Positions 3,026-29,906 of a stretch of DNA of 30,938 bases are shown in pieces. A program made the translations under genes and the position numbers. Source of the stretch: Desulfurococcaceae archaeon (lineage in GTDB: Archaea; Thermoproteota; Thermoprotei_A; Sulfolobales; Desulfurococcaceae); assembly GCA_038824035.1 (NCBI GenBank), contig JAWBBW010000017.1, forward strand, positions 1 to 30,938, given 5' to 3'. Under the pieces are notes generated by a model that did no database searches, was not told the origin of the DNA, and saw only the letters and a list, made by a program, of their open reading frames with translations. Numbering within the stretch: position 1 is the first letter of the stretch; each line of letters begins with the position of its first letter.

Positions 3026-4258
3026 ATGCTTAAATTAATTAACGTAGCGATCTCATTCATAGTCATGTTGTTTACAAACATAGGTGTAATAGGGTCTCTG
3101 TTAATCCTGTATATCAGGGAAATATACAGGCTTGAAACGATCACGCCCATAGCTGTTTCATTCACCATTGGAGGAATGCTCTCCGCTATATCAATGCCCA
3201 TCGCTGGCCATGTATATGATAAAAAAGGTCCCCGTGTAATGCTCTCATTTACCGCTTCATGTACATTACTATGGGGTCTTTGCATGTATTTGATGGGGAA
3301 AACTGGTTCATGGAGTCATGCTATGATTGCTTGGTATTTTGCATGGGCTTTCCAAGGATTCGCGTTTCCATTTGTAGTGATGAGCATAAATCCTGTTTTA
3401 ATGATGACATTTCCGGATAGACGCGGCCTCGTCATATCTATTACACAATCCGCCCAGGCCTTATCCATGGCTTTCTGGCCATACATGTTGAGACATATGG
3501 CACAGGTCCTCGGGTTTTTCAACGCATTGGCAACTATAGGCGTCTTGAATGCATTGATATTGATGTTCGCCTCTGCTCTACATAATCGGCTAAATGGCTA
3601 TGCCAAGCCCAGTGGGCATGAAAAAGCATCCGCGTTGCCTGGGAACCAGAGGCGTGTGACAGGGCTTATAACGGTTTTCCTGATGATCTTCTTCATAGCC
3701 ATGTCCTCTATGATCATAATGAGCTTTTTCGCCGGTATACTAGAGGATTTGTTTCAAGGCCCTGGCAAGCATATAACCGATGTCAATGGAACATTAATAC
3801 CCTTGATAATGAGCTTGACAGGGCTGTTACAGGCATTAATGGCCATGCCATGGGGCATTCTCATAGATAAGATCGGCCCTTTCAAGACGATCCCAGCGAC
3901 ATATATGGCAGAGACGTTGTCAACGTTCCTGGCCTTTATAACGTATACATCGAATCCATGGATCACCTCGGTATTCATAGTCATGAGATACGTGTTTTTC
4001 ACCGGTGAGCCGGTTGCGCACTGGACACTCATACCCTTGATTTTCGGCATAGAGAACTTTGGATTGATCTCCGGCACATTAAACTCCGCGCCCATTGCAT
4101 CATCTATTATAGCGCCTCTTCTAGGCGGTTTGATCAAGGATATCACTGGGAGTTACCGGGCATTACTGATATTATCCACCGGGTTATCATTACTGGCTTT
4201 CTCCGTGTATGGAATTAAACTACGAGAATTAATGTCCACGCGCTCCGCGACCGAATAA
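3026..4258 (+). CDS. MFS transporter (possibly oxalate:formate antiporter/MCT-like)
   Basis: About 12 hydrophobic helices; MFS motif A twice (GHVYDKKGPR, GILIDKIGP); FPDRRGL and FG.ENFG...G...APLLGG.IKDITGSY segments. Confidence 0.85.
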   Translation: MLKLINVAISFIVMLFTNIGVIGSLLILYIREIYRLETITPIAVSFTIGGMLSAISMPIAGHVYDKKGPRVMLSFTASCTLLWGLCMYLMGKTGSWSHAMIAWYFAWAFQGFAFPFVVMSINPVLMMTFPDRRGLVISITQSAQALSMAFWPYMLRHMAQVLGFFNALATIGVLNALILMFASALHNRLNGYAKPSGHEKASALPGNQRRVTGLITVFLMIFFIAMSSMIIMSFFAGILEDLFQGPGKHITDVNGTLIPLIMSLTGLLQALMAMPWGILIDKIGPFKTIPATYMAETLSTFLAFITYTSNPWITSVFIVMRYVFFTGEPVAHWTLIPLIFGIENFGLISGTLNSAPIASSIIAPLLGGLIKDITGSYRALLILSTGLSLLAFSVYGIKLRELMSTRSATE

Positions 4259-4350
4259 GCCGGGAATACTGAGAATACTGAGATACTTGAATTTATATTA
4301 AAATAATCGGGGATCTATAAGGATCTATAGGCTAGGTCTATGTGATATTC

Positions 4351-5106
4351 ATGTCTGAAAAGGATAGGCGAGATATCCTTTTAAGTAGGGCCAGGGAATT
4401 CGTTGAGAGATCCAAGGAGACTGATTACGTGATGCCGATCATATTGCCATTTATACCAGCCATCATGATGGCTATCGGATCCATACTCTTGATAATAGGG
4501 TTTATCACGTGGTTTATACATGGCGGCATATTAGTAGTGATAGGCTTTGTAACAATATTGTCAGGTATAATCATAAACTTCTACGTCATCTATAAATGGA
4601 TTGAAAGAAGGAACAAGCACTTCGAGCGGACATTATTGTTCTTCGAGATCATTGGTGAGATTGCCGTAATATTGGGGTTTAAGAGGACATATATTATAAA
4701 GACCAGGTTAAACGAGCTCAAAGCCATCAACTCCACTATGAGAAGTGCGTTAGGCAACACGATCTTAACAATACTACCGCTGTATATATACTATGTCTAT
4801 CATTTCCTTAACAAGGACTTTGCAAAGCACTCTGAAAAAGAGAGGTTATTACTCAACGAGATATTCGACGAACTGAAGGAGAGAAACCAGTTGTTTGTCA
4901 GGAGACTTGAGGAATTCCGAGATGTACCTGATAGAAGCACTTTACTATACTTTATATTAACGTTTTTGACAGGAGGGCTTTTCCTAATATATTGGGTCTA
5001 TACATTGACGAAGGACCCCAATACTCATTTCGAGTCACACAGTGTTATCGAGAGGGATATAATGGATGCTCTCGCCAATATTGTCGCGAGGACTAAGGAG
5101 CATTGA
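4351..5106 (+). CDS. Membrane protein, DUF4234-like
   Basis: Repeated TM hairpin followed by Y..Y.W...RN.HF and YWVY.L.KD.N.HF units. ATG at 4351 preferred over GTG at 4342. Confidence 0.7.
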   Translation: MSEKDRRDILLSRAREFVERSKETDYVMPIILPFIPAIMMAIGSILLIIGFITWFIHGGILVVIGFVTILSGIIINFYVIYKWIERRNKHFERTLLFFEIIGEIAVILGFKRTYIIKTRLNELKAINSTMRSALGNTILTILPLYIYYVYHFLNKDFAKHSEKERLLLNEIFDELKERNQLFVRRLEEFRDVPDRSTLLYFILTFLTGGLFLIYWVYTLTKDPNTHFESHSVIERDIMDALANIVARTKEH

Positions 5107-5122
5107 ACACTAGATAGGGTTT

Positions 5123-5551
5123 TTAATGAAACGACTCCTTCTCCATATTAACCTCTATATATGTGATCGCCCCTGTGGGACACGTGCTTGCACAGGCTGG
5201 TGGTAGGTTTTTCAATAGCCTATGATAACATAGATCGCACTTAGTTATTAGACCTAGCTTGTCAATCACCTTGATCGAGTTATATGGGCATATTTTCACA
5301 CACTCCAAGCATTTAGTGCACTTGGAGTGATCTATCAATACAACATCACTGGATTTATTTAATGCGTTTGCCGGGCACTTTGTAACACAGAGCGGGTTTG
5401 TGCAATGTAGACAAGTGTATGGTATGGATATCCTTGCCTCATCCATTACATATACTTCTATGTTGTTGATACCATTATGTTCTCTTGCACAAGCTATTTC
5501 ACATGCTTTACAACCGATACATAGCTTTGGATATATCAGTAGTCTCCCCAT
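5123..5551 (-). CDS. 4Fe-4S dicluster electron-transfer subunit (formate dehydrogenase beta / HycB-like)
   Basis: Four Cys clusters: CIGCKACEIAC, CLHCTNPLCVTKCP, CTKCLECVKICP, KCDLC...PACASTCP. Overlaps the end of fdhA; ATG at 5551 follows a GGTG RBS. Confidence 0.9.
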   Translation of the reverse strand: MGRLLIYPKLCIGCKACEIACAREHNGINNIEVYVMDEARISIPYTCLHCTNPLCVTKCPANALNKSSDVVLIDHSKCTKCLECVKICPYNSIKVIDKLGLITKCDLCYHRLLKNLPPACASTCPTGAITYIEVNMEKESFH

Positions 5552-19555: not shown

Positions 19556-21000
19556 TCATTTCTCTCCGCTTTTCTTAGTCCCATATATTTCATCATAGTA
19601 TTCGCCGAGAAGGCCTCTCGCAACCCGTTCTACTCCGACTTCTTGTATCCTCTTTCTGACATAGACCGTGTATATTAAGATACCAAGCAATACCCAGGCA
19701 ATCAATAGTACATATTCATATGGCCAGACAAGGCTGATATCGGTGCCCGGTATTATCGGCATCAACACAACTATTAATCCTACTATTAATGCTATGCCTC
19801 CGATTACAAACGGGGCTGGAACTGAGAAAGGCCTCTTTAAGTGTGGATATCTCCTCCTACATATCAACATTGATAAAACAGCTGTTAACCAGCAAACACC
19901 GAGAGCTACACCACCTATATCTAGGAACCACACTAGGCCTTTCCTACCCAGTAATCCAAGTATCATTGAGATCACTAGTGTGAACAAGAGGGCCCGTGTT
20001 GGAACACCGTATTTAGGATGTATTGATTCAAATTGCTTGGGGAATAAAGCTCCACGCGATAGAGCGTAGATCATCCTTGACGTAGTCATCATTGCAGGTA
20101 TCCAAGATGTCACCAAGCCCAGGAATGAGGCAAGTCATGCAATGATCCCAAGGCCTGGGTAAACGATATTTAACTCGTCTATTAATCCACGAGGAGCTAT
20201 CTCCGAGGAACCTTGCCATGGTATTATGAGCGCGCCGGCAAACATCATCAACATATACCAGCAACCAGCTAATACGGCGCTGAGCGCGACTAGATAGCCG
20301 AATTTCCTGACCTCTACTTTGGTCTCCTCAGCGATCATGGGTAGGGTTTCAAAACCCGATAAATAACCTATACCCATTAATGCGAACCTGAACGCAGCGG
20401 TGGCTGGACTTATCTCTGATTTGAATGGAGGCGTGAAATTATCCAATGAGCCGCGTAATGCGGCAACGCCTATTACCACTAAGCCACAGAACAAGAGGAG
20501 GATAAAGAGGGCTGTCTGGATATGTCCAGTTAATCTCACGCTGAAATAGTTCATGGCAAAGACTATTAAAGCCCCTATATAGCCCACTATTATCCATGGG
20601 AGATAACCGGGAACCCTGCTACCTCGTAAAGTGGTATGGTGTTTAGCTGTGGAAAGATCCAACTTAACAGAAATGGTAAGCCAATCACATAGAATGAGAG
20701 AGCGGCCGCTAACATGCCTAGTAAGAACATCCATGCTATGAAGAACGAGCCAGTGGCACCTATAGCTGGGTATACGAAGGCCACTTCACCACCCTCTCTT
20801 GGAATAGCAGTTGACATCTCAGAGTAGGCTAAGGCTATCAGAGATGCCATGATAGTAGCGACGAAGTAACCTAGGATTACTCCACCGGGGCCATAAAGGT
20901 CGTAGAATGTGGTGTTCAGGTATACCCAGCTTGTCCCTACTATACCGGCAACTCCTAGGGCTAGTACATGGTATCATTCAAGGACTCTCTTAAGAGACAT
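19556..21000 (-). pseudogene. APC-family amino acid permease, disrupted
   Basis: Reconstructed from ATG at 21000: MSLKRVLE*YHVLALGVAGIVGTSW... In-frame TGA at 20974-20976; 1-nt deletion near 20605 (FPV/YLPW); second in-frame TGA at 20135-20137 (GIIA*LASFLG). APC motifs AYSEM..AIP.EGG, GFET....AEE, SRM.YAL.R..LFP.....HPKYGVP and RPF.VP are present. Confidence 0.9.
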
Positions 21001-25986: not shown

Positions 25987-26388
25987 ATACAGTGGTGTTC
26001 TCGAAATTATAGGTCCTTATATTGGATGTTGAGACCATGTTTATATATAATTCGATTCAATTACTCATTACTCTATACTACCCTGAATAATTAAGGGTAT
26101 TTTGATCACTACATTTCCACTATATCTTGTAGACAAATGATATTCTCATAAAATCCCTTACTATTAAGAATTCGCTAAAAACACTGCAAACCTAAGACAA
26201 GAACATATCTGTGGAGTTTGGTGCAAAACAATTATTTGAAGACATGGCCTTTACTTTACTCCCTACCTCATCGTCTGTGGGATTTATTGTTGTCACGTGA
26301 TTTATGGGTTTTCGCGCAATAGTGTCTATTCTCCATCCGATAATTTAAAAATACCCCGTGTTCCATGTTGTTTGTAATTGTGATTGAT

Positions 26389-27156
26389 ATGCTGAGAGTT
26401 ATTGATAACAAGGAGAAGTGTATAGTTATGGCCGTGGTTAGTGGCGGTATCGACAGTACGTGTTATTTGGCCTTATGGCTTATGAGGGGTTGTGATGCAC
26501 ATGTGTTGTACTTTGACTATGGCCATAAGGCCAAGGAAAAAGAGCTGAAGTCACTTCGTGCTGTGATAGAGGATCTAAATGAAATTGCCAAATCGAGGAA
26601 TTGGGGCAGGGTTATTGAGCTAAGAATTGTGCCCATGGCTTTTATGAAGGAGTTCTGGGCTGGTACACAACTTGTTGATGAGGGTGTAGAGGTCAAAGAA
26701 ATGTATGAGCCCAGCGTTGTTGTGCCTATTAGAAACGTCGTTATGACAACCATAGCTACAGCCTACGCTTACACGATATCCTCTCAGAAAAACGTAAATG
26801 TATACGTGATAATTGGTAGTCAGTATAATGACTTGGAACCCAGGGAGGATACATGGGAACCCCGGTATCCCGATTGTTCACCTGAATGCTTAGAAATTTT
26901 GCAAGTCGCTCTAAGAGTGTGCCATTTCAGAGGAGATCGGAGAGTGGAGATATGGAGTCCGAGTAGAGAGGGCCTTGGTAAGGCTGATCTCATCAAGCTA
27001 TGTCACGATATCATAGGGGACACCATGTTTAAGACATGGAGTTGTTACATAGGGTTAGAGAAGCATTGTGGTGTATGCGAGAGCTGTAGAAATAGGAAAA
27101 GAGCATTCCGCGAAGTTGGCATAGAGGATAAAACAGAATACTTGAACACGGATTAA
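26389..27156 (+). CDS. queC: 7-cyano-7-deazaguanine (preQ0) synthase
   Basis: SGGIDS, FDYG, VP.RN, YPDC and TWSCY....HCG.CESC..RK.AF motifs. ATG at 26389 preferred over 26365. Confidence 0.88.
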   Translation: MLRVIDNKEKCIVMAVVSGGIDSTCYLALWLMRGCDAHVLYFDYGHKAKEKELKSLRAVIEDLNEIAKSRNWGRVIELRIVPMAFMKEFWAGTQLVDEGVEVKEMYEPSVVVPIRNVVMTTIATAYAYTISSQKNVNVYVIIGSQYNDLEPREDTWEPRYPDCSPECLEILQVALRVCHFRGDRRVEIWSPSREGLGKADLIKLCHDIIGDTMFKTWSCYIGLEKHCGVCESCRNRKRAFREVGIEDKTEYLNTD

Positions 27157-27416
27157 TAAGTTGACATAACCATGGTAAGGCTCCATGAAATATCTTTATC
27201 CATGATTAACACAGGTTCCACCACCTAACCGGGTTTTCTGGGATTTCAGCTGTTGTCTTGGTGTTTTTAGTACATGTGTATGTTTATAAGCCTCGCCATG
27301 TAAGTTTTCCAGGTATAAATGCATGGGAACGGGGTTTATGGTTATCATTTTCAATGCCATGGTGGTAAATGAGCTATTGGGAAAATAATGTTGTTAAATA
27401 TATGCCTTGTCCAGCT

Positions 27417-27650
27417 CTATTTCAGTATGAACATTAACCAGGGCAATCCAATGGCTATGTACACAATGTAGAATATGAGGCCAAATACCAAACCCAGTTT
27501 CCAGAAATCCCTACCCCTGATATATCCACTTCCATAGTATACTGGGGCCGGGCCAGTGGCATATGGCGATATAACCCCCATTAATCCAAGCGTGTATGCA
27601 AGTGAATAAGCCGCTATTTGTGGCGATATACCCGGTATACCCAACGCAAG
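27417..27650 (-). pseudogene. C-terminal fragment of a DASS-family anion permease (CitT/TtdT-like), 5' truncated
   Basis: LMGVISPYATGPAPVYYGSGY....FWKLG..FG is the DASS C-terminal signature. The frame is closed upstream by TAG at 27666-27668, inside the foreign fragment. Confidence 0.85.
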
Positions 27651-28260
27651 AGTTCTGCTGAAGTACTACGGCAGAGGATACGTTGCTTTGCCGGCTAAGC
27701 AGGATTCATCGCTGAGAGCAAGACCGGATCTCGTAGCGGTACCAGTCGATAAATCGACTTGGAGGCCCCTCTACTCTAATGCTGTTGCCATAGAGGTAGA
27801 GTCCTGCAATGAGCTCGAGACCCACCCAGAGAACGTGGTTCACAACTGGCTGAAGGAATCCGTCAAGGACTTCGCCGAGGTCCACAGCTGGACGGATGAA
27901 AAATGCTTCGAGAAGCTCAGGCAACTGTACGAGAAGCATGGAGAAGTCCACGGAAAGGTGAAGATATTCTCGGTGAGAATAGAGAAGCCCGGTAAACCTG
28001 TTGTGCAACCGAGCGCTAGTACACTAACGGCTCCGTCCACGGCTGGTGAGAGGGTGAGGGTGGTTGAGGTCCAGGGGAGGAGGTACAGGATCGTGTTCAA
28101 GAGTACCGATGATGTGGCGAGATTTGATAGGTTTAGTGGTATACCTGCTATACAGATCTCAATCAAAGGCTCGGAGGTCGTTATCTACATGAGGAGCCTT
28201 GGTAAGTCGATCACTATTCAAGCTGAGCGCGTGGATGAGCTTACCTCCTCCTCTTCTTGA
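27643..28260 (+). pseudogene. 5'-truncated gene with a PD-(D/E)xK-like domain; resembles the C-terminus of crenarchaeal conjugative-plasmid TraG/VirD4-like proteins
   Basis: Frame extends upstream of the ORF-track start (NARVLLKYYGRGYVALPAKQ). Contains RPDLVA...AVAIEVES..E..THPE.V..N..K...EVH.WT. The plasmid assignment is from recall only. Confidence 0.55.
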
Positions 28261-28330
28261 CTGGTTTTACAACCGTGTACTTCCCCATCCTCATGGATTT
28301 GAGCACACCGTACTTCACTAGCGTGTTCAC
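27645..28330. mobile_element. Fragment of a foreign element (conjugative-plasmid-like) carrying two truncated convergent genes
   Basis: Both internal genes lack 5' ends. The left edge cuts the DASS gene and the right edge is CRISPR repeat 1. GC is higher than in the flank (34/60 at 27841-27900 vs 26/60 at 26701-26760). Confidence 0.6.
28241..28330 (-). pseudogene. C-terminal end of a winged-helix DNA-binding protein, cut by the CRISPR repeat
   Basis: Minus strand reads VNTLVKYGVLKSMRMGKYTVVKPVKKRRR* (wHTH recognition-helix end plus wing). No start upstream: the frame runs into the repeat and meets TGA in spacer 1. Confidence 0.6.
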
Positions 28331-28615
28331 GAATACAATATAAAGAATTGAAAGCCCTAAGGGGCGAGTGGTTCAGCTCTGATGTGGGTGAATACAATAT
28401 AAAGAATTGAAAGCTTGTAGAGCTGGTACAGGTCTGACTTTACTACTACGCCTTTGGGAATACAATATAAAGAATTGAAAGGTAGCGGAATCCCCGTACA
28501 AGTACAGCCAAGGCATCCACTTAGAATACAATATAAAGAATTGAAATGAAGAACTGCAGTTCACTGCATTCACTGAATGCAGTGATCTAAGGAATACAAT
28601 ATAAAGAATTAGAGG
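28331..28615 (+). CRISPR. CRISPR array, 5 repeats and 4 spacers, no cas genes in window
   Basis: 24-bp repeat GAATACAATATAAAGAATTGAAAG at 28331, 28390, 28458, 28524 (last base T) and 28592 (degenerate end AGAGG). Spacers are 35, 44, 42 and 44 bp. The ATTGAAAG 3' end and the degenerate right-hand repeat indicate + orientation. Confidence 0.97.
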
Positions 28616-28659
28616 CGGGGATGTCATTCAGGGGTGGGCTCGTCTTCGTAGTAAGGGCT

Positions 28660-29082
28660 TGAGCCAATGGATAAAGTCGAGTTGATCCGCGGGATCGAGT
28701 CGCGGGGGATAAAGTGGTGTTCGTTGGCGATGGGGTTAACGATGTACTGACAATAAGGGAGGCTTTCGTGGGGATTGCCATGGGTAAAGCCTCAGATATT
28801 GCGAAGAACGGTGGCGACGTTGTCTCGATCTTCAATGACATGAGAGACGTGGTGGAGATCCACGAGCTGAGCGGGAAAGTGAACGGGATTGCACTAGAAA
28901 ACCTCACATGGGTGTTCGCATACAACGCGATGTTAATCCCCATGGCAACAAGAGCGCTCTACTCGAGCCATTGTGTGTTTTTGAAACCGGAATGGGCTAC
29001 GCTAGCCATGATCCTGAGCGATATATTGGTGATAGCGAACCCCCTTAAACTCGTGGTTAACGAGTCATCGTGGAGACATTAG
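28660..29082 (+). pseudogene. copA: C-terminal remnant of a P1B-type (Cu+) ATPase
   Basis: PMDKVELIR..., a frameshift in the G run near 28704-28708, then VFVGDGVND, GIAMG, DIAK, ENL.W.FAYN...IP and P.WA.LAM.LSD. The phosphorylation and N domains are missing. Confidence 0.85.
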
Positions 29083-29195
29083 AGAGATCCCCAGAACACG
29101 CATTCCGCTCACCGAGGTTCTCAACCTCAACCCACGATCCCATCAGTAGCCTAGATCTCGAGAACAATTGATGTAAATGTTCACCATCGCTGTTT

Positions 29196-29906
29196 TTACT
29201 TAACGAGAAAACTGGCAGTGATGAGGAAAAGTACAACGGAGTAGAGCAATATATCCTTTTTCTTGAAGAACGTGAACCTGATCCTAGGCCTCAGCGTCGC
29301 CCCATAGATCAAGTGTGCTTCGTAAAGCCCTCTCGCAGTGTATAGTGAAAGCAATATAAGGGGTATTACGAGCTTGTAGAGTTTCCTACCCCTGTACTTC
29401 AGCTTGATCGCCACGGCTGATTCGGAGAGATAGTTTAGGAGCACTGGTATGTGGGCAATGGTCACGGACAACATGAAGGCCTGGGTTTTCAGGCCCATCT
29501 TGCTGAACACATATCTCCACTCCTCGAGGCTTACCACTTGAAAGAACAATGAGAAAGATAGAAAAAACGCTACGAGTCTTAAAGCCCCAACCGGTATGTT
29601 CACAGGATCTGGGGCAAGCCAACCCATGAAATGGCTTAAATAAAAGACGAGTGCACCGGCCACTGTGAACAACAGTATTAACCTAGTCCCTTCAAGTACA
29701 ACTCTCACCCCGCGTATGAGAGTCGAAATCGCGAGAACTATCGATAACACCAAGGCCGTTCTAATAATCTCCGCTCTGAGCCCGGCTTCAAACCTTGTAT
29801 AAGTAAGATACGCCAGGATAAACAAGGCTGTAAATAACCTGGACAACGTGCTGAATTGTTCTAGCTTTCTGGATTGAACTAGAAGATAAGATAAGCTTCT
29901 AAGCAT
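29196..29906 (-). CDS. Membrane subunit of an ECF-type ABC transporter (EcfT-like)
   Basis: Multi-TM protein overlapping the ATPase stop. ATG at 29906 (MLRSLSY) with GAGGTG RBS; the longer ORF-track start lies inside the ATPase gene. Confidence 0.65.
   Translation of the reverse strand: MLRSLSYLLVQSRKLEQFSTLSRLFTALFILAYLTYTRFEAGLRAEIIRTALVLSIVLAISTLIRGVRVVLEGTRLILLFTVAGALVFYLSHFMGWLAPDPVNIPVGALRLVAFFLSFSLFFQVVSLEEWRYVFSKMGLKTQAFMLSVTIAHIPVLLNYLSESAVAIKLKYRGRKLYKLVIPLILLSLYTARGLYEAHLIYGATLRPRIRFTFFKKKDILLYSVVLFLITASFLVK

Follow-up and report, generated by a model that had tools for sequence, protein, structure and literature searches.

The window analysed here is the whole of contig JAWBBW010000017.1 (30,938 bp; C17 below) of assembly GCA_038824035.1, a metagenome-assembled genome (MAG) of a Desulfurococcaceae archaeon. 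This genome, called G000 here, comprises 1.33 Mb in 29 contigs and is 99.67% complete by marker genes. Towards the right end of the window three broken pieces stand side by side: the 3' end of a transporter gene of the DASS (Na/sulfate symporter) family, a short block of DNA of plasmid origin, and the remnant of a CRISPR array. The plasmid DNA ends at position 28330, the first repeat begins at 28331, and no leader lies between them. We compared this arrangement with the genomes of relatives (G006, G007, G009, G011, G016, and others) and with contigs of other sequencing runs (Logan contigs of runs X1, X2, X5, and X6).

The array remnant (28331..28615, plus strand) consists of five repeats of 24 nt and four spacers. 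The repeats start at 28331, 28390, 28458, 28524, and 28592; three of them are identical, one has 1 mismatch, and the last one is degenerate with 3 mismatches. The spacers (28355-28389, 28414-28457, 28482-28523, and 28548-28591) are 35, 44, 42, and 44 nt long and all unique. Three or more direct repeats that are nearly identical, with unique spacers of comparable length between them, define a CRISPR array, and the stretch agrees with this definition. Outside these five, no copy of the repeat was found in the whole 1.33-Mb genome, and this is the sole array with it. The same repeat with 1-2 changes is found in arrays of relatives, which have up to 39 repeats. In G016 (contig C25) such an array lies about 2 kb from cas1, and therefore this repeat family adjoins cas genes in relatives.

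In relatives, an array read in this orientation has its leader and cas1 on the 5' side of the repeat, which puts the leader side of the remnant to the left of 28331. Among 25 arrays listed from relatives, 9 were dropped because their flank was cut by a contig end, and 16 had 160 nt of readable upstream flank. The conserved leader of the relatives is AT-rich and lies 5' of the repeat in the orientation of the window, and its motif TTTGATCAGAnCCnCATGATCACCATGA was present in 14 of the 16. One of the remaining two has only a leader-like end, while the other, on contig C2 of G007, has foreign DNA. The motif is absent upstream of 28331 and nothing leader-like was found anywhere in G000. A reading of the letters alone, made earlier (the sequence-only reading), had proposed that foreign DNA occupies the place of the leader, and the comparison with the relatives agrees with it: the letters before 28331 are not a conserved leader.

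The cas genes were not found either. Cas1 gave no match in G000, whereas 7 of 16 genus relatives have it. The Pfam models of Cas6 and DevR also gave no match in G000, which carries little weight because both models missed the Sulfolobus control as well. When the cas1 open reading frame (ORF) of G016:C25 and its neighbour were searched by tblastn, no match was found in G000, and none of the ORFs of at least 90 amino acids in G006:C15:1-16000, a stretch with a cas1 match, had a match in G000. The genes that adjoin cas1 and the array in G016 (G016:C25:1-12000) are syntenic with positions 619-8477 of contig C10 and positions 1467-4500 of contig C22 of G000, and the cas1-array module of G016 is not present at the corresponding site on C10. 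As assembled, the array is an orphan. With neither an upstream leader nor any cas gene found in the MAG, 28331-28615 does not look like a functional CRISPR-Cas locus, and the array is probably dead.

The block to the left of the array (27649-28330, 683 bp) has a GC content of 51.4%, while that of the genome is 41.5%, and it ranks in the top 0.16% of 13,130 same-size windows. The sequence-only reading had described about 690 bp of higher-GC DNA with two convergent 5'-truncated genes, and these turned out to be the ends of an ATPase gene and of a winged-helix gene. The first (27649..28260, plus strand) comprises the C-terminal 203 codons and the stop codon of a TraG/VirD4-like conjugation ATPase. 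It shares 91% nucleotide identity with contig C77 of G011 and 85% with the TraG gene of an integrated element in G006. The protein encoded by the latter has 966 amino acids, and the fragment is 88% identical to its residues 755-865. The whole G006 protein contains DUF87 (HerA), TrwB_AAD_bind, TraG-D_C, and T4SS-DNA_transf domains, and its residues 4-863 are 35-42% identical to homologues from pNOB8, pKEF9, pARN3, pARN4, pING1, pHVE14, pAH1, and pTC. In the G006 element the neighbours of the ATPase gene encode a VirB11-type ATPase, a PriX/prim-pol primase, a DUF5906 helicase, and an HNH protein, and the element also has a large ORF that is presumably a DNA methylase. Because the G006 protein is homologous to the pNOB8-type ATPases, the fragment is judged to derive from the crenarchaeal conjugative plasmid family of pNOB8 and pKEF9. 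The ATPase fragment had no relative in viral contigs, and a phage collection gave only distant matches to Bacillus phages.

The second gene (28244..28330, minus strand) retains the last 29 codons and the stop codon of a gene for an 80-amino acid winged-helix protein and is cut at its 5' side by repeat 1. The 80-amino acid protein has no Pfam match even at E 10. Its predicted fold is a winged helix (predicted local distance difference test, pLDDT, 83.9), and the best matches in the PDB are the DNA-binding domains of Fur, ArsR/SmtB, and BlaI with template modelling scores of about 0.7. Intact counterparts of both genes were sought and were found in two relatives: the winged-helix gene is whole in G011 (2221-2463 of locus L011), and the ATPase gene is whole in G006. 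Neither an integrase gene nor a tRNA attachment site was found at the border in the window, where only 683 bp of the element are kept. The fuller copy in G011 has an N-terminal fragment of an integrase (PHROG integrase, E 3e-6) and a tRNA-like stretch. No tRNA was detected by ARAGORN, either in the window or in loci L011-L014, and 27610-27690 and 28290-28370 share no direct repeat of at least 6 nt, as a target-site duplication would leave. For the left end the sequence-only reading had said the same. The two ends of the block do share an 8-nt inverted match (TGAAGTAC at 27659-27666 and GTACTTCA at 28309-28316), set in from the left end by 11 nt and from the right end by about 15 nt; such a match is about the level expected by chance.

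The right end of the block can be placed to the base. From 27648 to 28330 G011 is 91% identical to the window; beyond this point the sequences part, with the remainder of the winged-helix gene following in G011 and repeat 1 in the window. Contigs from three hot-spring metagenome runs (X1, X2, and X6) that reach 28330 also continue as an intact winged-helix gene. Thus the claim that the winged-helix fragment is cut at the first base of repeat 1 holds against four intact references, and at the join no base is shared, extra, or missing between the foreign DNA and the repeat.

The left end has a different history. The DASS fragment (27417..27644, minus strand) holds the last 75 codons of the gene and matches positions 398-468 of the 472 positions of the Pfam Na_sulph_symp profile (E 4e-16). 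It meets the ATPase fragment at 27645..27649, with 1 nt of microhomology at 27648 in an alignment of C17, contig C23 of G000, G011, and G006. The sequence-only reading was right that this end lies in a DASS gene, and two things have to be added to it. First, G000 also has a full-length but frameshifted DASS copy on C23, which is 98% identical to the fragment over 27415-27638 (224 bp; C23:4017-4240). Second, contig C77 of G011, orthologous to the C23 locus with 96% identity along 2.2 kb, has a near-twin of the junction: a 5'-truncated DASS gene is joined to the same plasmid ATPase fragment at about 3068-3075 of L011. The G011 junction retains 558 bp more of the DASS gene (about 790 bp against 228 bp) and 5-9 nt more of the ATPase gene. 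Beyond the ATPase fragment, G011 has the whole winged-helix gene, an AT-rich spacer region, an ORF for an IS200/605-type transposase, the integrase fragment, and the tRNA-like stretch, and there is no array at this place.

Since G011 carries this near-twin junction with an intact winged-helix gene and without an array, the plasmid fragment was evidently already a chromosomal scar beside the DASS gene before it was joined to the CRISPR repeat. The left junction is probably a separate and older event. The array-free junction of G011 indicates that the two ends did not arise in one event. The later CRISPR join appears to have removed everything beyond codon 51 of the winged-helix gene. The nearly coincident breakpoints on the ATPase side in G000 and G011 may reflect a one-sided deletion or a preferred break site. 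A chimera of G011:C77 across the DASS repeat was considered and rejected, because its junction lies 558 bp past the shared segment. Within G000, the DASS copy on C23 is split into two overlapping frames (4019-4804 and 4654-5454), and its identity to the fragment is only 84-89% once the downstream flank is included. A recent gene conversion between the two copies is suggested by their sequences. The exact protein of the DASS fragment was found on 4 contigs of public assemblies and a variant with one amino acid change on 2 more, and 8 such contigs carry an exact copy of the truncated 190-amino acid ORF of the window.

The array itself points to the plasmid family of the fragment. In the G006 element, the gene for a primase-helicase contains a match to spacer 2 (43 of 44 nt), at a distance of 7.5 kb from the TraG gene. 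Spacer 3 has a match in a 927-amino acid ORF on contig C59 of G011, which we take to be a primase-helicase (28 of 30 nt with blastn-short; 86% identity across its full 42 nt). Judging from these two targets, the system that built the array was engaged against plasmids of this family. Spacer 4, for which the search gave no target, contains a near-perfect internal palindrome (24 of 25 nt equal to their own reverse complement, 28561-28585).

The model that best explains these features, and to which we give an even chance, is that homology between a spacer and its protospacer in the integrated and decayed plasmid drove a deletion that took the leader, the upstream part of the array, and possibly the cas genes. 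In this model one spacer of the former array had been acquired from the plasmid's winged-helix gene. Because the plasmid remnant is chromosomal, such a spacer would be self-targeting and would be selected against, and self-targeting damage might have been the trigger. The spacer and the chromosomal protospacer would have been in direct orientation and recombined over about 39-45 bp. This would have deleted the interval between them, with what else remained of the plasmid, the leader, the repeats upstream, and perhaps the cas genes, and a single copy of the common sequence would stay behind and run straight into the next repeat. Recombination between spacers and protospacers and deletions driven by self-targeting are among the events reported in PMC8616872, and recombination over short sequences in Sulfolobus is mentioned in PMC4390879.

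If this is what happened, the former spacer would be identical to the end of the foreign DNA (28286/28292-28330). The candidate overlap (28286..28330, plus strand) is 39-45 nt long and has CCN-type 5' motifs at spacer-length distance from the repeat: CCT at 28289-28291 fits a 39-nt spacer, and the run of C at 28283-28286 fits one of 43-45 nt, where such a fit is expected by chance about half of the time. The motif was taken from two protospacers only (5' flanks CTT and CCT), and spacers of the family range from 35 to 52 nt. Together with the exact junction, the spacers against the plasmid, and a second junction in G007, this end, compatible with a protospacer adjacent motif (PAM), gives circumstantial support to a deletion by spacer-protospacer recombination. 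The sequence-only reading had proposed such recombination as the first of three options. The recombination survives in the form of a deletion, while the integration of a free invader at the array does not, since the remnant was already chromosomal, as G011 indicates.

The second junction is on contig C2 of G007, where an array of 21 repeats has no leader (locus L019, G007:C2:169000-173617, minus strand; repeat 1 at about L019 3258). Instead, 1.36 kb of DNA with 56-67% GC extends from the contig end up to the first repeat, and this DNA was found nowhere else in G007. It encodes an S-adenosylmethionine (SAM) methyltransferase and a 126-amino acid ORF, and the repeat provides the last two letters of the stop codon of this ORF. 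A metagenome homologue with 95% identity (P0029, 173 amino acids) extends 47 amino acids past the point where the ORF is cut. The three other arrays of G007 all have normal leaders. With the window counted, 2 of 17 arrays with a readable flank begin at a foreign gene that is cut at the repeat. Two exact junctions are hard to explain by chance, and therefore a systematic cause is indicated. Three causes would produce such exact joins: recombination of a spacer with its protospacer, which accommodates all of the observations, an assembler misled by that homology, and misdirected integration by Cas1-Cas2.

Several points weigh against a deletion by recombination at a spacer. The PAM argument is weak, because CCN falls in the allowed window about half of the time by chance. 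The end of the winged-helix gene was not found as a spacer in a whole-region search of 41 relatives. A search with 28230-28330 across the order (325 genomes) recovered the G011 element and otherwise only 6 matches of chance level. Among 256 unique spacers from the arrays examined, only spacers 2 and 3 of the window matched one of the examined loci or G000 outside an array. These spacer searches covered one genome per species, while leader-proximal spacers are strain-specific. The remaining points concern the assembly, which is the main open risk. G000 is a MAG, and near-identical intact plasmid genes (P0002) are present in the same kind of habitat, which is a setting for a chimera. The G007 case, being at a contig end, resembles a chimera at least as much as biology.

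An assembly chimera is accordingly the rival that survives best. Here the assembler would have passed through the 39-45 nt of spacer identity from the chromosomal remnant or a co-occurring plasmid into the array, and in the real genome the winged-helix gene would be whole and the array, with its leader, would lie elsewhere. An exact boundary between foreign DNA and a repeat is the expected product of such an error. The 29 contigs of the MAG, the high contig depth of the near-identical intact plasmid genes in hot-spring metagenomes, and the position of the G007 junction, 1.36 kb from a contig end and into DNA that is unique in that genome, are all in keeping with it. Against it, the rest of the winged-helix gene, its neighbours, the leader, further repeats, and the cas genes are all missing from a MAG of such completeness. 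Furthermore, short-read assemblers in common use end with word sizes longer than an identity of 39-45 nt, which counts against a chimera, although the assembler used here may differ.

Protein look-ups in other assemblies also bear on this. The exact 255-amino acid form of QueC, which is encoded by a single-copy gene in the left flank, was found on 5 contigs, and the exact 236-amino acid protein of the right flank was found on 9. For both of them, as well as for the variant of the DASS fragment and the 190-amino acid ORF, the longest contig is the same 56,454-bp contig of another assembly. In the clusters of intact winged-helix homologues, no contig longer than 19,678 bp was listed. The left and right flank proteins thus seem to share one contig that is longer than any listed for the intact winged-helix homologues. 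A contig of 52,420 bp was also listed for the 190-amino acid ORF, the DASS fragment, and the 236-amino acid protein. This linkage is deduced from the equal size of the longest contigs in the look-ups, and the junction itself is unseen there, which limits what it can add to the case for the recombination model. Direct searches for the junction were of little help. A junction pattern (28309-28339 with two degenerate positions) matched 0 metagenome contigs and 0 genome contigs, and an exact search with spacer 1 gave the same result; the window's own genome may be left out of both collections. No sequencing run contained at least half of the sampled words of 27300-28800 (best share 0.35). None of the contigs listed from X1, X2, X5, and X6 bridges 28330|28331 or 27648|27649, which is uninformative either way, since these are other samples and rare variants are dropped. 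Exact look-ups with the junction-spanning 59-amino acid ORF, the array ORFs, the ATPase-fragment ORFs, and alternative starts found no match, and these ORFs are probably uncalled or called from other starts. On balance we consider the junction probably real, formed in the cell rather than by the assembler. The chimera, which the sequence-only reading had listed as its third option, is weakened by the look-ups that place both flanks on one contig of another assembly and is now unlikely, though it keeps some weight.

A chance event, in which the right end of a common illegitimate deletion or rearrangement happened to coincide with a repeat boundary, is improbable. The neighbourhood does consist of broken genes at a synteny break, and in relatives the right-flank genes have different left-hand neighbours. 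The left junction, with its single nucleotide of microhomology, indicates that end-joining-type events occur here. With a repeat-spacer period of about 65 nt, however, the chance that such an end falls on the first base of a repeat is about 1 in 65, and the second foreign gene cut at a first repeat, in G007, makes a coincidence much less likely.

It is also conceivable, though improbable, that a mini-array or a solitary repeat was carried by the plasmid and that the plasmid recombined with the host array through the 24-nt repeats, so that the junction was made on the plasmid. The leaderless locus F of S. solfataricus, as described in PMC4390879, has a pNOB8-like fragment of 899 bp situated between two of its repeats, and integration through solitary repeat units is among the proposals in PMC8616872. 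No repeat-like sequence, with up to 7 mismatches allowed, was found in the element loci of G011, G006, G002, and G011:C59, and the winged-helix gene is whole in the intact copies of the element. The far end of the array also argues against this explanation. There the degenerate last repeat abuts the 3' fragment of a P-type ATPase gene (28616..29082, plus strand), a pseudogene with a 1-nt frameshift near 28700. The junction recurs in record 8 of X1 (3,496 nt), which spans 28457-29300 with 3 mismatches, and in record 16 of X2, a 95%-identical contig that spans 28390-29300, and is thus genuine. In both records the letters upstream of the aligned part differ from the window. Such a difference is expected for a chromosomal array, in which the newer spacers vary between strains.

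The weakest explanation, the second option of the sequence-only reading, is half-site integration: Cas1-Cas2 would have attached an over-long DNA by its 3' end to the junction of leader and repeat, and the leader would then have been lost during repair. The leader-side 5' base of the first repeat is the position attacked first in spacer integration, and the join is at the 5' base of the present first repeat; still, this explanation is very improbable and has no specific support, as the near-twin DASS junction without a CRISPR join in G011 fits a chromosomal fragment with a pre-existing left end rather than an incoming prespacer, no Cas1 was found in G000, and repeat 1 shows no sign of having been the leader-proximal one.

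Orphan and leaderless arrays are common, and their origin is rarely traceable. The closest object described is locus F of Saccharolobus (Sulfolobus) solfataricus P1 and P2, which according to the accounts in PMC4390879 and PMC3025118 is leaderless, inactive, and without some cas genes and contains the 899-bp pNOB8-like fragment. Similar to the window, it is a crenarchaeal array in which a leader and some cas genes are missing and which takes up no spacers. In locus F, for which these accounts offer no mechanism, the plasmid fragment is located between two repeats of an array with 88 spacers, whereas in the window it replaces the leader side of a remnant with four. Unlike locus F, the window has a fragment whose far end is joined to a transporter gene fragment, and its cut can be placed to the base against intact copies. 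The literature on locus F (PMC4390879/PMC3025118) also contains the suggestion that fragmentation of integrated elements may follow CRISPR interference and subsequent repair.

Other systems resemble parts of the proposed mechanism. In the staphylococcal phage-CRISPR recombination of Varble et al. 2019, as presented in PMC8616872, homology of one spacer length joins an invader to the locus, as proposed here; that case involved laboratory phage infection of bacteria and transduction of the locus, while the window would record a deletion at a chromosomal plasmid remnant in an archaeon. Remodelling by self-targeting (Vercoe et al. 2013, as presented in PMC8616872; the type III-A system of S. aureus, PMC5687920) likewise selects deletions that remove the target or disable the system. 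In these accounts the deletions are not said to end at the spacer itself, as the one proposed for the window would. Small CRISPR loci of conjugative plasmids (pNOB8 and pKEF9) and virus-borne mini-arrays (PMC6858448) resemble the window in being short, without cas genes, located beside conjugative-plasmid genes, and equipped with spacers against mobile elements. The window differs from them in that its trailer junction is chromosomal and common to other strains, and the related plasmid copies examined have no repeats. A keyword search of the open-access literature found no natural archaeal deletion from a protospacer into a repeat, which is not proof of its absence in print. Thus the window is known in kind, belonging with leaderless orphan arrays, self-targeting deletions, and spacer-mediated recombination, and it is a variant with a second candidate in the same genus.

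If the junction is real, it is a scar at base resolution of a spacer serving as substrate for homologous recombination with its own target in a natural archaeal genome. One event would have ended both the self-targeting and the activity of the array. It would link spacer autoimmunity, the decay of integrated plasmids, and the loss of CRISPR-Cas, which are usually treated apart, and it makes a concrete prediction for experiments in tractable Sulfolobales. More tentatively, and with somewhat less than even confidence, we suggest that spacers act as recombination handles in this Desulfurococcaceae genus, which repeatedly fuse mobile DNA to a repeat (G000:C17 and G007:C2), remove the leader, and silence the array. 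If this is true, genome rearrangement and the loss of CRISPR-Cas can be driven by the immune memory itself, which might also account for the plasmid fragment in locus F. If the junction is an artefact, it is a warning that the identity of spacer and protospacer can stitch host and mobile DNA together in MAGs, also at G007:C2.

The surroundings of the locus are chromosomal on both sides. On the left there is an intact gene for QueC (7-cyano-7-deazaguanine synthase; 26365..27156, plus strand; Pfam QueC, E 9e-35). On the right there are the gene for the 236-amino acid membrane protein (29199-29906, minus strand) and an ABC (ATP-binding cassette) ATPase gene that is cut by the contig end (29899-30936, minus strand; Pfam ABC_tran). 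The membrane protein has no Pfam hit, and its label as the T-component of an energy-coupling factor (ECF) transporter was dropped for this reason. The segment 29199..30936 shares 79% nucleotide identity with contig C9 of G007 and with G009, where the left-hand neighbours are other genes, presumably a ThiF-like gene and an aminotransferase gene. The idea that C17 is a misbinned contig of a second organism was rejected, as no near-identical second copies of its genes exist in the rest of G000. A search of the window with Rfam found no family at the gathering score. The P-type ATPase fragment begins within about 25-40 nt of the degenerate last repeat and is 55-64% identical in amino acids to the C-termini of full-length ATPases in relatives and on C23. 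In G007:C9 an intact homologue is located 22 kb from the genes that follow the fragment in the window. The region as a whole is a patchwork of broken genes at a synteny break, with the DASS, plasmid, and frameshifted P-type ATPase fragments and a split permease gene. The latter, for an amino acid permease (19556-20734, minus strand), is divided into two ORFs of 186 and 199 amino acids, which match positions 289-426 and 120-253 of the Pfam profile.

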